In this document: one piece after another, positions 36,482 to 48,426 of the stretch | How the letters are laid out: every line of letters starts with the position of its first letter | Position numbering within the stretch: position 1 is the stretch's first letter | Virus record (IMG/VR): IMGVR_UViG_3300035698_012898 | Coordinates: 1-64,000 of that record | Strand: one strand, 5' to 3' | DNA length: 64,000 bases | Source: a virus | Made by a program: the position numbers and the translations under genes | The notes under the pieces: model-generated | Told to the model about the DNA's origin: nothing | The model's database searches: none | The model's input: the letters and a program-made list of their open reading frames with translations, nothing else

Positions 36482-37582
36482 TCACTTGTCGTGGCTCACG
36501 TCAACAACTTCCATATCCCGCAAAACACATAAGAGATTGCGCACCCTGGCGGAATTAGTATGGTATTCAATGACATGCTTTCGCCCGCAATTCCAAATAT
36601 GATCTGCCACGTTCGGATGCTCCAATAATTCACGGATCTTTTCAACGCACTCTTCAGGTGAACGATAAGAAACGTATGACTCCCCGTCTACAAAGCCATT
36701 CGGGATTACGATCTTGAGTTCGTCTGCTACCAAACAAGTAACAGCTGCCGTCTCCCAATATCGACACGTATCATATCCAGCACCCCGCACACTGACACCA
36801 ACCCTACTACGACCCAAAAGACACAAGTAGTCATTCCAACTTACCCACGGCTTGTTTTCCGGATGTGGAGACAAATGACATGCAATATACGTTTTGTACT
36901 CAGCATCGAGCACCCGTAAAGCTTCGGCAACCTTTGCGCGACTTGGATGTGTCACGCCAAGGAGCATAGATACATCTACTGCACTATCCCGGTGCTCCGC
37001 AAACACAGGGGCAACACAATTTGCCGGAACGCTAAAGGGAAATGGGAGCACAGGAACACCCGCAATCGTATCCAGGTTAGACTCTGTTGGGTACTCCCGT
37101 TTCAAAACCACAGTTGGATGCACATCGTTCTTAATCACGTTCAGAACGTTACCTGCTATTCCCCAAGAGTCTTCACCATCATGCAGGACAACAGGTGCAC
37201 CAGATATTTCTATGTCTTTAGCAAGTTGCCTATACGCCGTTACTGGACCAACTCTTGCAGACTCAAGAACCACCAATGAAATATCACCGCGCCGCAACAT
37301 CGCAGAAACAAGATGAAACTGATCATTCTCTGTTACTGCGAACGGCGTCTGCCCATAGTTTACACCGCATGCATGATGTGGCATCCAAACATAAGAGGAT
37401 ACGGACATAGGGTCTCGCATACCCCCTATCGGAACAAGGTCCGTACCACCGTGGTACGCCTTCTTAATCGGGAAGTCATATACGTTTGCAGCGCCAACTA
37501 CCTGACAGAACCCATTGAACAAATACGTCGCACCGTAATCCGCCCCAACGTTGGTCAAGATCAATACGTTAGTTCCGGCCAT
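36482..37582 (-). CDS. Glycosyltransferase (CgeB/Glyco_trans_1_2-like GT-B)
   Basis: GAGYDTCRYWE...FVDGESYVSY...HT..AR. Confidence 0.8.
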   Translation of the reverse strand: MAGTNVLILTNVGADYGATYLFNGFCQVVGAANVYDFPIKKAYHGGTDLVPIGGMRDPMSVSSYVWMPHHACGVNYGQTPFAVTENDQFHLVSAMLRRGDISLVVLESARVGPVTAYRQLAKDIEISGAPVVLHDGEDSWGIAGNVLNVIKNDVHPTVVLKREYPTESNLDTIAGVPVLPFPFSVPANCVAPVFAEHRDSAVDVSMLLGVTHPSRAKVAEALRVLDAEYKTYIACHLSPHPENKPWVSWNDYLCLLGRSRVGVSVRGAGYDTCRYWETAAVTCLVADELKIVIPNGFVDGESYVSYRSPEECVEKIRELLEHPNVADHIWNCGRKHVIEYHTNSARVRNLLCVLRDMEVVDVSHDK

Positions 37583-38295
37583 TATTCCGTCCTCCGTAAC
37601 ACGGCGTTAAAGCTAAAGTTGTTATCCATCGTATTAAACTCAATCCACTCTGCTTTAATGTGCGTCCAAGTATCCAATACACCAAGCGCCCAATCATAAA
37701 ACTCCTGGGCGCTAAATTCTCTCGTATGCGATGGATCAAGAACTCCACGAGGAAGAAATTCCATGTCTGGAATAACAGCACAGAAGCATCCGCCAATACG
37801 TAGCAGCAACATCAGTGAATGTAATACCTCTACTTGATTCTCAAGATGCTCAAATACGTGATTTGAGATCACACCGTTAAAGGTTCCAGGTCGAAATGGG
37901 GAGTCCACTCCTGTGTCCGGACACCACGTCATATGAGGGACACCTTGTCCTTGTTTATAATCAGGATTCCAATTGGCATACTTGTCCGTACCAAACGTAG
38001 CAGGCCCATTCACGCCAGCCGTACCGACACCAAGACAACAACCGCCACCCTCATACCCAAGCTTGATACCCCAATACATATCAAAGGCACGTTGCTGATG
38101 CCCAACAAGATTCCCTTCCTTCCCATACGACCTGTGTTCGTCTGAGACATCCCAGTAATGCAGATCCGGGATAAGTGTTGGTGTCTCAGCACTCCACGGC
38201 TGACATGCCTTTCTAATAAGATCTGCTGGCATTTCTAATGCCGGCTCAATTCCTTGCCTCGGAATAACTACCTGCCCTCTGCAATCAACAGTCAT
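37582..38295 (-). CDS. Class I SAM-dependent methyltransferase-like protein
   Basis: CLGVGTAG, SNHVFEHL, LRIGG..IPD, DPSH.REF. Confidence 0.75.
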   Translation of the reverse strand: MTVDCRGQVVIPRQGIEPALEMPADLIRKACQPWSAETPTLIPDLHYWDVSDEHRSYGKEGNLVGHQQRAFDMYWGIKLGYEGGGCCLGVGTAGVNGPATFGTDKYANWNPDYKQGQGVPHMTWCPDTGVDSPFRPGTFNGVISNHVFEHLENQVEVLHSLMLLLRIGGCFCAVIPDMEFLPRGVLDPSHTREFSAQEFYDWALGVLDTWTHIKAEWIEFNTMDNNFSFNAVLRRTE

Positions 38296-44755: not shown

Positions 44756-47700
44756 TTTTGTAGCAACCGATCATATGCTATCTCATGCCTTTTCGCCGCA
44801 CGCTTCGGGGTATTATCCAAGACATACTGCTTGTTGTTCGTTACTAACGTTGCACGTAGTTCCTTGTCATTACGAAGTTGCATAATCGCCTCGATCAATT
44901 CTCCAGGAGGATTATCACCAGGTCGCATTGCACCCCCATAAGGAACCTTTATCACGTTCACCATATGCCGAAACTCGCTGAACATCGGAGAGTCAGTGCA
45001 GATAATTGGCTTACCTGCAACCATCCCATCTCTTAATGCGGCACTAGCAGAACTATGCTGCATGACCGAGTAGTAAAACACGAGCGCATCACAAGCAGCT
45101 AGCCGAAGGAGCACATCTGAATACGTCGCGTACTCGTCAAAGATGTGAACCTTACCAGAATCAATTAGACTTATATTCGCTCGACGTGCACTCTTATGAT
45201 ACGCCAGCTTAAGCGGGGCGTGCCCAGTTAGAATGTACTGTACGTCTGTCCCCGCACAACGCATAGCCACGTCCCGATATGTAGACAAGAATTCGTGAAA
45301 CCCTTTGTGTACATTCCAGAACCCGTGCGACCCCATCACGAAAGAGTTATGTGGTATTTCCAAGGCGTCCCTAGCAGCATGCATATCTGGTGCATCCACG
45401 TCTCGTATTGGCAATCCTATTGTAACCTTCCTTGGTAGGTTTGCCTGCGGTTGTGGCTTTGTCGTAATAATCAAATCAACATACTTAGGAATCTCACTCA
45501 TAAACCGCGTTTCCCAAAACGTATGTAACGTGATTACAATCTTACAACCACGTTCACGAAGCTTGCCCAAGAGGGCAAAGAACGACCGCTCATCTTGGTA
45601 CAATGAGAACTCATGTTCAAAGTGTACAACCTGCGGAGCATATGCCATCAATGCATCATATAACTCCATATGGTTTTCAAACTTCCTGTCCCAGCACCGA
45701 ACAATATACTGCTCATCAACAGGCTTAAGAAGCGCTGCCTTCCGTTCATGCGGGGCAAAGACTCTGAAAGAACAAGTAAGCTCACTTGCTACATCACACG
45801 TGGTCTCGGCAATGCCGCACCTATTACCCCATGGCGACACTATAGCAATCCGAACCCGGCCAGACCGAACACGAACAGCTTGCGAAGTAGCATTTATTTC
45901 CTCTTCACGAAACGACCGAAGGAAGAGTGTATTCATGCGTACACGAAGCTGCTCAATCGTAAACCTTTTAGCTGCGAACCTCCAAGCATCCCCAAGGTAT
46001 CCCAGTAACTTCTCCTTGCTCTTACCTGGATCGTCTACCGGCTCATCCCAAGCTGCCCAAATAGTTTCCAATGCGTCCACAAGTTGATCGTCATCAGCAA
46101 AGTAAAATGGGTATTCCTTGAAGCATGTCTTGAACACAGGCAGCGGCTTAGCAAGGGCTGGCGTCCCTATATACATAGCTTCTGCTAATGGTATTCCAAA
46201 CCCCTCGAAGTCACTGTAATGAACTACGGCGCGTGCTGCTCGTAAGACGGCCCACTTCTGCGTCTCAGGACAGTTTTCCAACGCTTCAACAACTACCCCT
46301 TTACGTAGCCATTCCAACCGTGCTGTCTTTACCACAGCTTCTGTACCGTCGCCAATGAGAGTGATAAAGAAGGGGTTGTCACGGGAACACCTTGCACCCA
46401 CAGCAAACTTCTCAGCAATGACTTCTACGGCAGCCGCAAGCCCTTTGTACTTCACATGACGCGCTATTAGTACCACGCCATTTCTACGTCCCTCTGCTGA
46501 AGGATGATCACCAGACTGTATGTCGATGGTATCTTTAGCAACATCATTAGCAACTACAGGACCTACAACACATATATCACGTTCAGCAAAGCCAGGATCC
46601 CACGCAAGCAAGTAATCCTTCACAGTCGAAGATACGCACCAGATAAAGTCAGTCTTTAACAAAGCCGCCCTTACCTCTTCCCAATAAGCACTCTCAAGAT
46701 CACGTCCTTGCGTACGATGCTCTGCTAAGAAATTAGGCGTCTCATAAACAAGGCAAGCAGACTTAGCCCCTTCTATACCAGCAGCAAAGGCTACGCCATC
46801 TACAATAGGTTGCATCGGGGAACACACTACAAGATTGAACCTTGCTTCCTCTCCAAGCGTATCACGCAATTCCATCATCGGCTTATCTTCAACAACAATA
46901 TGAAACCGCGCCTGATACGGTGTGTCTTGCAGATAGACAGGAATCGCCTTACAAAACACGTATACTTCACAGGCCCCTTTAGAAGCAATAGCACGAGCAA
47001 CCTGCCACGTATGATGCCCGCCCCCTGTGTATCGGTCTGCTTCATCCAACAAGACAGCTACGTTAAACCGTACAGGGTCAAACCCGGTCTTTACCTGGTC
47101 AGTTGTAATAGGAAGCAACGCGGCACGCACAGACCGTACATCTGCATCCTGGTCTACAGTCCGCATACCTGTATCAACTAATGTCTTATAAATAGCGTCC
47201 ACAATCCCATCAACAGGGACACTAGTCATACACTGTGGTTGTGTTGGTGATGATCGCTTTTCACAAAACCCTATTCGTGTCTGGTTACAAGGAGAACAAT
47301 CTTCCGCCGACTTAATTGCTACTGTCCGCTTAGGAGACGGTGCATGCGACAACGTAAGCGTTGAGTCTGTCGGCCCCCAGAAAGAAACAGTCGGTACACC
47401 AAGAGCAACTGCCAGGTGTAAAAATCCCGTGTCCCCACCGCATACGAGAGAAGCATTACGCACCAGCTCAGCAGAAACTTCTTCAGATTGGTAGTTTGCA
47501 ATACTTACCCATGCATTTATAGGCTGGTCAGGAAGGTAAGAAACACCAAGAGCCTTTAATGCTTCAGCAGACTCTTCAGGTATAGCGACCGCTGCCTTAT
47601 CAAACCAAGGGACCTCATCAAGAGCACCCCCTATGCACAAAACACGAACACGTGGACGGTCTGCCCTAGTCGGATCATGTGTAGCAAGCATCTGCACAAG

Positions 47701-48426
47701 ACGATGAATAATCTTCGCCCTAGGTGTCTTCGTTCCGTTGCTCGTTCCAAGCAAGACTATGACATAAGGATACGCGCCAATACCAGACGTATCCAACACC
47801 AACTGCGCAGCTTGCGTAATAGACGGTTCATTCGTAGGATCTATTACGCATACTGGTAGCTTATCAACTGTATCAAACCCTTGCAGCCCAGCACGATCCC
47901 AGTGTAACTTGTAATAGTTTTCCGGGTCCCCCTTATGATCTTCAATTACACCAGTGATCTGAATTACGTACTCATGATCATAAATGACCTGGGCTGTTGA
48001 AGCCTCGCTAATTGTAAACACGTTGTCTATGTGCGTAAACATACGACACATAGCTGCATGCTCTTCCAGCACAGCTAGCGAGATACGTACCTTTGGAAAC
48101 TTGGTTTTCAAGAAGCGGGCAAGCTGTATGACAAATACCGTATCGCCAATAGCGCCACTCCGACGAAGTAAGACACGTTTCCCGTTTAAGTCATCCGCAG
48201 ATAAAACATGCAATGGTGGCTTAAACGTCCCCTTTGGTTTCCGAACAAATCCCGCAACCTCAGATTCCACGTCAGTTATTGCAACCTCGCGAAACCATCC
48301 CTTTTTCAATAACCTCTCTGCTAACGCAACTGAGACCTCCATTGGCTTTCCATGCACAAAGGTCACACCCTCGACAGGGCCGTACTCATCAATGTTCGGT
48401 CTTACTAACGTAAGAAACTTTCCCAT
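44752..48426 (-). CDS. Multidomain glycosyltransferase: short N-terminal domain + GT9 + GT4 + GT4
   Basis: [30 protein letters not shown] (GT9); [11 protein letters not shown] (GT4); [24 protein letters not shown] (GT4). Confidence 0.9.

Follow-up and report, generated by a model that had tools for sequence, protein, structure and literature searches.

Results

Gene Content of the Cluster

The window analyzed in this study covers the initial 64 kb of a linear IMG/VR virus record with a length of 78,715 bp (IMGVR_UViG_3300035698_012898), and the system in question is a cluster of glycan synthesis and tailoring genes within it, at 36482-48426. The cluster lies between the MCP (major capsid protein) gene and the head-tail adaptor gene. 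It is filled by ten tightly packed genes on the minus strand (Table 1), which is the strand of all long open reading frames (ORFs) in the 78.7-kb record. Adjacent cluster genes are spaced by -40 to +39 nt, and promoter-like and terminator-like sites within the cluster are not above shuffled expectation. A first-pass annotation of the window had counted nine contiguous, mostly coupled genes after the MCP gene; contiguity holds, but the number is ten. Its inventory of six glycosyltransferase (GT) domains, a GDP-mannose 4,6-dehydratase (Gmd), three class I S-adenosylmethionine (SAM) transferases, a CmoA-like enzyme, and a sulfotransferase-like protein was recovered completely by family, profile, and structure annotation.

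Gmd passes the TIGR01472 equivalog cut-off over residues 13-323 of 335. The tandem GT2 proteins are 44% identical to each other, and PHROG labels of the cluster GT2s include GtrB-like O-antigen conversion. MT288 has an N-terminal extension of 110 aa. A CmoB-like identity was considered for MT272 and rejected, because the similarity was generic alone (20 bits against a cut-off of 275) and CmoB structures were not matched. No DPPY-type DNA methyltransferase motif was found in MT288, MT272, or MT237. Flippase, polymerase, and polyprenyl-phosphate transferase genes were not found within the cluster, and none of its GTs has a 19-residue hydrophobic segment (membrane-spanning length); the ten cluster enzymes are predicted to be soluble.

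Table 1. Genes of the glycan cluster, followed by other genes of the phage
Feature	Position	Strand	Evidence or remark
Triple GT, 1224 aa	44752..48426	-	PF01075 (GT9), PF00534/PF13692 (GT4), third GT-B domain by profile
Gmd	43748..44755	-	TIGR01472, 439.5 bits (cut-off 415); PF16363, E 1e-133
GT2a (predicted soluble GT-A)	42713..43732	-	PF00535, E 5e-17
GT2b, tandem paralog of GT2a	41718..42716	-	PF00535, E 9e-15
MT288, class I SAM-dependent methyltransferase, 288 aa	40891..41757	-	PF13489 and PF08242, E 1e-9
MT272, class I SAM-dependent methyltransferase, 272 aa	40069..40887	-	PF08241, E 3e-14
CmoA homolog (carboxy-S-adenosyl-methionine synthase family)	39307..40065	-	TIGR00740, phrog_4752
Predicted sulfotransferase-fold protein, 327 aa	38285..39268	-	AlphaFold2/Foldseek, ESM-Atlas neighbors
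MT237, methyltransferase-like, 237 aa	37582..38295	-	Weak: PF08241, 23 bits (cut-off 21.2)
CgeB-like GT-B glycosyltransferase	36482..37582	-	PF13524, E 1e-14
Large terminase	L002:5863-7614	-	phrog_38, E 6e-48; first in transcription order
HNH endonuclease, 338 aa	62541-63557	-	phrog_99, E 2e-27; between terminase and portal
MT-A70 adenine methyltransferase	59551-60147	-	DPPW motif; PF05063, E 1e-25; after terminase, before portal
Portal	56207-58114	-	
ParB-like gene	55464-56210	-	Between portal and MuF-like genes
TAGT (TET-associated glycosyltransferase)	54626-55522	-	PF20691, E 1e-47; 42-47% identical to T4-like Aeromonas/Vibrio phage homologs
MuF-like head protein	51333-53252	-	
Scaffold/protease-like protein	49595-51064	-	
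MCP (HK97-like)	48466..49482	-	PF05065, E 3e-6; phrog_1623, E 5e-62
Head-tail adaptor	35789..36460	-	phrog_442, E 6e-9; downstream boundary of the cluster
Tail tube	33657-34163	-	PF25681; after adaptor
Tail-module protein with two BACON/viral BACON carbohydrate-binding domains	22143-23198	-	PF13004, E 1e-21; PF19190, E 4e-14
bpMoxR AAA+ ATPase, VWA domain, and DUF6744 genes, in succession	6920-11053	-	bpMoxR: PF20030, E 1e-26; replication region
Family A DNA polymerase, cut by contig end	1-1869	-	N-terminal uracil-DNA-glycosylase-superfamily domain, PF03167, E 7e-26

Triple Glycosyltransferase

The triple GT consists of an N-terminal module (residues ~1-60), a GT9-like domain (~80-425), a GT4 domain (~455-830), and a second GT4-like domain (~858-1224). 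PF01075 matches residues 319-382 with 37 bits (cut-off 22) and is matched by all eight aligned family members (best E 1e-15), and the GT4 models match residues 648-788. The last GT-B domain was seen by PDB profile search alone (6kih, E 5e-8; PglA), a search in which TibC was not listed for this protein at E<=1. Resemblance to generic phage GT PHROGs is weak. An AlphaFold2 model of residues 1-445 has a predicted local distance difference test score (pLDDT) of 72. In superpositions of its GT9 module, VIA Z was 24.3 for WaaF (1psw; 278 aa, 3.2 A), 23.8 for 3tov, 20.7 for WaaC, and 20.2 for TibC, while other GT-B folds did not exceed Z 13. Assignment of this domain to the bacterial autotransporter heptosyltransferase (BAHT) family, to which TibC belongs, was considered and rejected, since no family model matched and TibC ranked after WaaF, 3tov, and WaaC.

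A CxxC-x7-C-x10-C motif (C377/C380/C388/C399) that follows a GPTD motif is invariant in the triple GT family, 8 (14) members. Its position in the C-lobe is comparable to that of C339/342/358/370 in TibC, and the model has low pLDDT at residues 383-386. The N-terminal module is modeled as a small mixed fold with pLDDT of 41-79.

Conserved Core in Related Phages

In a 5.8-billion-protein collection, the triple GT has 13 full-length homologs with 32-39% identity, all metagenomic and on contigs of up to 84 kb (77-84 kb for P0004, P0010 from locus L014, P0012, and P0013). The fusion was not found in 185,579 prokaryote species genomes, where only single-domain matches of ~25% identity occurred. Loci of relatives were recovered from IMG/VR and JGI/ENA metagenomes with the triple GT alignment. 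In about 11 metagenomic relatives (L007, L008/L019/L023, L014, L015, L016, L017, L018, L021, L022, and L092), the triple GT gene comes immediately after a capsid gene whose product is 37-56% identical to the window MCP. Broken triple GT ORFs in L021 and L022 are explained by contig ends and contain no in-frame stops.

Longer relatives encode, after the triple GT, a GT2, MT237, the CgeB-like GT, and MT272 in slightly permuted order, followed by an epimerase/dehydratase, the head-tail adaptor, and the tail tube. The epimerase/dehydratase, just before the adaptor, is an NAD-dependent NDP-sugar enzyme of 351-353 aa (PF01370, E 4e-47) that is unlike the window Gmd. GT2 has a single ortholog in relatives. 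MT237 orthologs (28-46% identity) are present in all longer relatives, MT272 orthologs (33-39%) in L008, L014, L016, and L023, and CgeB-like GT orthologs (26-37%) in L008, L014, L016, L020, L023, and L092, with 28% identity in the distant phage L013. Head-tail adaptor orthologs follow the cluster in L008, L014, and L023.

A capsid-seeded search, independent of the GT, added L092 (capsid 39% identical, same layout). This search returned no capsid of at least 37% identity that had visible downstream DNA and lacked the cluster, and capsids ~25% identical to the window MCP come without it. The synteny survey that the first-pass annotation had proposed found the triple GT and a four- to five-gene core between capsid and adaptor in every relative with visible downstream DNA. 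The core, which consists of the triple GT, GT2, MT237, CgeB-like GT, and MT272 together with an NDP-sugar enzyme, has a fixed place after the capsid gene and before the adaptor gene. With this order kept across relatives, the core belongs to the head module and defines the clade. Gmd, the second GT2, MT288, CmoA, and the sulfotransferase-fold gene are add-ons in the window phage. MT288 is a variable accessory gene with a 27% identical homolog in L016, and CmoA is absent from the clusters of all relatives.

An analogous capsid-adjacent glycan cluster occurs at 315-21330 of L013 (IMGVR_UViG_3300020171_002008). Its order is prohead protease, probable capsid, small ORF, a 768-aa di-GT4 protein without a GT9 module, GT2, methyltransferase, CgeB-like GT, and a Gmd-like gene. 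It also contains genes for two zf-FCS proteins, and upstream is a 1814-aa protein with ATP-dependent DNA ligase and AAA domains. The small ORF preceding the di-GT4 gene has no similarity to the N-terminal module of the triple GT.

CmoA Homolog

The CmoA homolog scored 171.9 bits against TIGR00740, which is under the equivalog cut-off of 193.3. It aligned over its full length to CmoA structures (1im8, E 4e-35; 4gek, E 3e-32), keeps the KRxNxY(S/T)E...KR segment, and matches phrog_4752 at E 2e-73. The protein is 46% identical to an Erwinia phage CmoA, has matches in six Synechococcus phage records, and is up to 63% identical to 132 IMG/VR phage CmoAs, with 48-63% identity to the closest 80. In Erwinia phage Y3, CmoA adjoins an asparagine synthase. 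A C5-methyltransferase-like ORF was detected by a crude motif test in 48 of the closest 80 phage CmoA loci (L097-L176), and none of the 80 has homologs of the GT, methyltransferase, or sulfotransferase genes of the window cluster. Placement of CmoA in the window is therefore exceptional rather than typical. Here it is tightly packed, with MT272 on one side (3-nt gap) and the sulfotransferase-like gene on the other. Since MT272 is conserved where CmoA is absent, MT272 does not depend on phage CmoA.

In the CmoA-CmoX-CmoY pathway for 5-carboxymethylcytosine in Synechococcus phage S-B43, CmoA was shown to make carboxy-SAM, CmoX is a C5-methyltransferase with SPPC/R350, and CmoY is an asparagine synthetase-like amide ligase (PMC12783734). 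Like S-B43, the window phage has a CmoA homolog, probably of the same family (phrog_4752), and ParB-domain proteins in the same genome, but its CmoA is embedded among sugar enzymes. Neither a PF00145 match at E<=1 nor an xPPC..ENV ORF, either of which would indicate CmoX, was found in the 78.7-kb record (~75% of the genome), and PF00733, which would indicate CmoY, likewise gave no match at E<=1.

Sulfotransferase-Fold Protein

The sulfotransferase-fold gene starts at M32 of an ORF running to 39361, a start chosen because 29 homologs begin there. These 29 were found among 1.8 billion representatives. Pfam, PHROG, and NCBIfam gave no match. The AlphaFold2 model (pLDDT 84, predicted TM score 0.85) is predicted to have a sulfotransferase fold: the ten best Foldseek matches in PDB are all sulfotransferases (TPST1/2 and the CurM and OLS sulfotransferases; E 6e-5 to 2e-3, with TM modest at 0.36-0.47), and ESM-Atlas neighbors carry Sulfotransfer_3/1. 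The family keeps an N-terminal loop, GxGT(x)R, and a segment IHLT(R/K)D(P)R (R..H...D), which resemble 5'-PSB and 3'-PB motifs; the window protein has KDAK where the family has RDPR. No relatives for gene context were obtained from IMG/VR or the 185,579 genomes by a pattern method, or by a word-indexed search.

ParB-TAGT Pair

The ParB-TAGT pair (54626..56210) is in the same head operon as the glycan cluster, 6 kb upstream of it and outside it. Seven otherwise unrelated IMG/VR contigs (L080-L086) have an adjacent ParB-TAGT pair, with TAGT 55-65% identical. PF20691 was negative in the whole L007 and L008 records and had no match in the portal-to-capsid intervals of L088, L090, L091, and L092. 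Its distribution suggests that ParB-TAGT is a mobile DNA-glycosylation cassette. Because relatives keep the cluster without TAGT and the pair travels without the cluster, the two are independent. The window phage has two ParB-like genes, and with TAGT, these genes, and MT-A70 it clearly invests in DNA modification.

A search of the 78.7 kb for TET/JBP, a ThyA homolog, a C5-methyltransferase, and an asparagine synthase-like ligase found none, the TET search being without a positive control. TET/JBP and ThyA homologs were also not recognizable in five of the seven ParB-TAGT contig records (one estimated to be 89% complete), again with no positive control for TET. ParB-TAGT is present here without a recognizable hydroxymethylase. 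Thirteen of the closest 80 phage CmoA loci have a homolog of the window ParB-like protein at a distance of up to 8 kb from CmoA; one ParB-like family accompanies two DNA-modification modules, TAGT and CmoA/C5-methyltransferase.

Discussion

Proposed Function of the Cluster

Glycosyltransferase and methyltransferase genes in a phage structural operon are already known experimentally from mycobacteriophages. The first-pass annotation had proposed that the window phage builds a glycan on its virion. This is the best reading of the core, strengthened by conserved synteny and by independence from ParB-TAGT; we give an even chance that the core decorates a virion protein. The acceptor would most likely be the capsid, and the MCP, encoded directly upstream of the cluster, is the candidate. 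The MCP has a conserved T-rich segment, ATE(N/S)TxxT(E/N)T(R/K)(R/K)P, at residues 80-93. Phage specificity, predicted solubility, and fixation between capsid and adaptor across deep divergence speak for a virion acceptor, which is the best-supported of the acceptors considered. Also in its favor are the precedents from mycobacteriophages and chloroviruses, the lack of DNA methyltransferase motifs in the cluster methyltransferases and of a C5-methyltransferase in the 78.7 kb, and the protein-glycosylating activity of TibC, a member of the GT9 fold. A weak hint comes from the N-terminal module of the triple GT, which resembles YqbF; the gene for YqbF directly follows that for the capsid in the skin prophage of B. 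subtilis. Late co-expression with the capsid had also been offered as an argument, but it does not discriminate.

The cluster may encode a cytoplasmic assembly line, co-transcribed with the head genes, that builds a complex tailored oligosaccharide on a virion protein, likely the capsid. By analogy with GT9-fold protein heptosyltransferases, the GT9-like domain would attach the initial sugar to the acceptor; this sugar may be heptose, taken from host ADP-heptose. The chain would then be extended by five further GT domains (two of GT4 type, two of GT2 type, and that of the CgeB-like GT). Gmd, whose family function is taken from its model score, would convert host GDP-mannose to GDP-4-keto-6-deoxymannose, a 6-deoxyhexose precursor. 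Reduction to the 6-deoxyhexose donor could be carried out by a host enzyme or by intrinsic reductase activity of Gmd; the GMD of chlorovirus PBCV-1 has such activity. MT237, MT272, and MT288 may O-methylate sugars. CmoA would make carboxy-SAM, with which a neighboring methyltransferase (MT288 is the co-variable candidate) may carboxymethylate the glycan, and the sulfotransferase-fold protein may be responsible for sulfation. The variable add-ons would make the surface glycan differ from one related phage to another.

Several observations weigh against a virion glycan. The head-operon location has no diagnostic value, since it is shared by TAGT, a member of a DNA GT family. A search of the capsid, tail tube, and connector proteins found neither Ser/Thr-rich tags nor C-terminal extensions. 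No homology was detected to the mycobacteriophage enzymes that have been validated, as tblastn of the CgeB-like GT and GT2a against 50,697 phage records gave no actinophage match. No close DNA relatives of the window were found among these records, and no cultured phage is alike at the DNA level. The GT9 module is structurally nearer to the lipopolysaccharide (LPS) heptosyltransferases WaaF and WaaC than to TibC, and an NCBIfam scan at E<=1e-3 listed no BAHT family model for this domain, only LPS heptosyltransferase I/II/III models. The resemblance of residues 3-61 of the triple GT to YqbF is weak (2hjq, E 0.0034; Pfam YqbF in two of eight members at E 0.057). The only experimentally defined role of a phage CmoA is supply of carboxy-SAM for DNA 5-carboxymethylcytosine (PMC12783734). 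Finally, estimated completeness of the record is ~75%, so ~25% of the genome is unseen.

Alternative Explanations

The cluster could be a mosaic, in which the core glycosylates the virion and CmoA, perhaps with a neighboring methyltransferase, is an unrelated late gene with a non-glycan role. CmoA would then either feed a DNA carboxymethyltransferase whose gene lies in the quarter of the genome that is missing, or act as a counter-defense by depleting host SAM, an idea raised in PMC12783734. This explanation is compatible with a virion glycan built by the core. We consider it unlikely, though it accommodates the absence of CmoA from all relatives' clusters, the DNA-modification neighborhoods of the closest CmoA homologs (including the asparagine synthase neighbor in phage Y3), and the conservation of MT272 where CmoA is absent. 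It does not account for the translational packing of CmoA inside the cluster, CmoX and CmoY were not found in the 78.7 kb, and a relation to glycans is plain for two further add-ons, Gmd and the sulfotransferase-fold gene.

DNA hypermodification is a second alternative. The cluster would build or extend a glycan on a modified base (5-hydroxymethylcytosine, 5-hydroxymethyluracil, or 5-hydroxycytosine) before packaging, with TAGT adding the first sugar and CmoA feeding DNA carboxymethylation. Phage DNA sugar-hypermodification clusters combine TAGT/GT-A or GT-B enzymes with 5mYOX/ThyA homologs and ParB (bioRxiv 2023.12.21.572611; PMC13326640), and the window phage shares TAGT-ParB with them. Like the window cluster, they have several GTs and sugar-nucleotide enzymes repurposed from LPS or teichoic acid enzymes, are expressed before packaging, and are sometimes near structural genes; their glycans reach up to three sugars, including heptose, made by GT-A and GT4-like GT-B enzymes (bioRxiv 2023.12.21.572611; PMC13326640). 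TAGT and both ParB-like genes are in the same late operon as the cluster, phage CmoA normally serves DNA 5-carboxymethylcytosine (PMC12783734), C5-methyltransferase-like ORFs are frequent at the closest CmoA loci, and about a quarter of the genome is unseen. Against this, the 12-kb window cluster has no base-handle neighbor: TET/JBP, ThyA, C5-methyltransferase, and ligase genes were not found in the 78.7 kb. It is also evolutionarily uncoupled from TAGT, as each occurs without the other, and the closest CmoA loci have no homologs of its GTs. Six GT domains, three methyltransferases, and a sulfotransferase exceed any described DNA glycan, the cluster methyltransferases do not have DNA methyltransferase motifs, and a bulky anionic chain on packaged DNA would be physically unfavorable. 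We regard DNA hypermodification as improbable.

In LPS core assembly, soluble GT9 and GT4 enzymes work on the cytoplasmic face of the membrane and host machinery exports the product. The window enzymes could similarly remodel the host envelope: soluble GT9, GT4, and GT2 enzymes would modify a host lipid-linked acceptor at the inner membrane face (LPS inner core or similar), and host exporters would deliver it, for example to prevent progeny adsorption to debris or to block superinfection. The first-pass annotation had argued against host conversion from the lack of a flippase, polymerase, and lipid-carrier transferase. None is in the cluster, but remodeling of the LPS core would need no phage flippase, and because the GT9 and GT4 domains resemble LPS core enzymes, this alternative should not be dismissed on that ground. 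Its structural basis is the similarity of the GT9 domain to WaaF and WaaC (Z 24.3 and 20.7), with GT4 plus GT9 being the textbook enzyme set of LPS core assembly and GtrB-like conversion among the PHROG labels of the GT2s. Nevertheless, the cluster is fixed in the head module and kept across deep divergence, unlike typical moron or conversion cassettes. No prophage-borne fusion was found in the 185,579 prokaryote genomes, the genes scanned included neither an integrase nor lysogeny genes, and the GT2s do not have the membrane segments of GtrB-type enzymes. Late expression would also leave little time for export to the outer membrane. The probability that the cluster remodels the envelope is small, and other acceptors take up the remainder.

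Comparison With Known Systems

Mycobacteriophages have soluble GTs and an O-methyltransferase in or next to the virion structural operon (Corndog gp35-38, Che8 gp108-110, and Myrna), which is the arrangement seen in the window. Corndog gp35-38, an O-methyltransferase and three GTs, are inside the structural operon (PMC4351075), and glycosylation of mycobacteriophage capsid and tail tube was shown experimentally, according to the summary of Freeman 2023 in PMC12363180. The mycobacteriophage enzymes are not virion components, and their product is a glycan of capsid and tail-tube proteins. The window cluster has 10 genes and six GT domains against two to four genes in mycobacteriophages, with no detectable sequence homology, and it includes a 1224-aa GT9-containing fusion, Gmd, CmoA, and a predicted sulfotransferase-fold enzyme. 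Its position is capsid-to-adaptor, while that of the mycobacteriophage genes is portal-to-protease.

For capsid glycosylation, chlorovirus PBCV-1 (A064R, A111/114R, A061L, and GMD A118R) also has soluble cytoplasmic GTs, including clade-conserved three-domain transferases, a virus-encoded GDP-mannose 4,6-dehydratase, and SAM methyltransferases for O-methylation of terminal sugars, and its glycans have a conserved core with strain-variable outer sugars (PMC9614988). PBCV-1 differs in being a eukaryotic giant virus with a double-jelly-roll capsid and GT-A or novel folds rather than GT9/GT4. Its genes are dispersed and early-expressed, with no capsid-adjacent operon, so the parallel is functional only and does not reflect homology.

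The BAHT enzymes TibC and Aah offer a third comparison. TibC glycosylates its protein acceptor directly in the cytoplasm and has an iron finger (C339/342/358/370), a 97-aa N-terminal beta-barrel, and a dodecameric ring (PMC4358343). The window protein shares with TibC the GT-B fold of GT9 type (Z 20.2 over 285 residues) and the possession of an additional N-terminal domain, and may also share a Cys4 metal-finger-like insertion near the end of the C-lobe. However, the N-terminal domain of the window protein is ~60 aa rather than a 97-aa beta-barrel, the cysteine spacing differs, and the window protein is fused to two further GTs.

Significance

To our knowledge, phage-encoded virion glycosylation has been shown experimentally for mycobacteriophages only. 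Glycosylation of mycobacteriophage virions shields the particles from antibodies. New in the window are the size of the cluster, a clade-defining GT9+GT4+GT4 fusion of ~1,200 aa, the clear division into conserved core genes and variable tailoring genes, and the presence of CmoA and a predicted sulfotransferase-fold protein inside a phage glycan cluster. If the virion is the target, phages in general would be capable of self-glycosylation and would have invented enzymes for it, such as this fusion, and exchange of tailoring genes would let related phages vary the chemistry of their surfaces. This matters for the stability and adhesion of phages, for their immune recognition in therapy, and possibly for how they evade surface traps of the host.

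CmoA outside a DNA or tRNA context may point to a new acceptor class for carboxy-SAM. In its fullest form, the proposal is that a clade of probably Gram-negative-infecting siphophages makes a capsid oligosaccharide begun by a GT9-type protein GT, which in the window phage is deoxygenated, O-methylated, carboxymethylated via carboxy-SAM, and sulfated. As a whole this is distinctly unlikely. If true, it would give carboxy-SAM chemistry its first carbohydrate acceptor, and no bacteriophage with a sulfated, anionic glycan coat would have been known before.

Other Genes of the Phage

Cultured capsids nearest to the window MCP are ~28% identical. In transcription order, the tail tube is followed by a tape measure of 1857 aa and tail genes, and then by replication genes for a DnaB-like helicase, a Toprim primase, an SNF2 helicase, and a UDG-PolA fusion. 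In the latter, the uracil-DNA-glycosylase-superfamily domain is fused to 3'-5' exonuclease and polymerase domains. The host is probably Gram-negative, and the BACON domains of the tail-module protein are a possible hint at a glycan receptor and a Bacteroidota-type host. The phage-borne bpMoxR, VWA, and DUF6744 genes in the replication region resemble components of MoxR-vWA ternary conflict systems.

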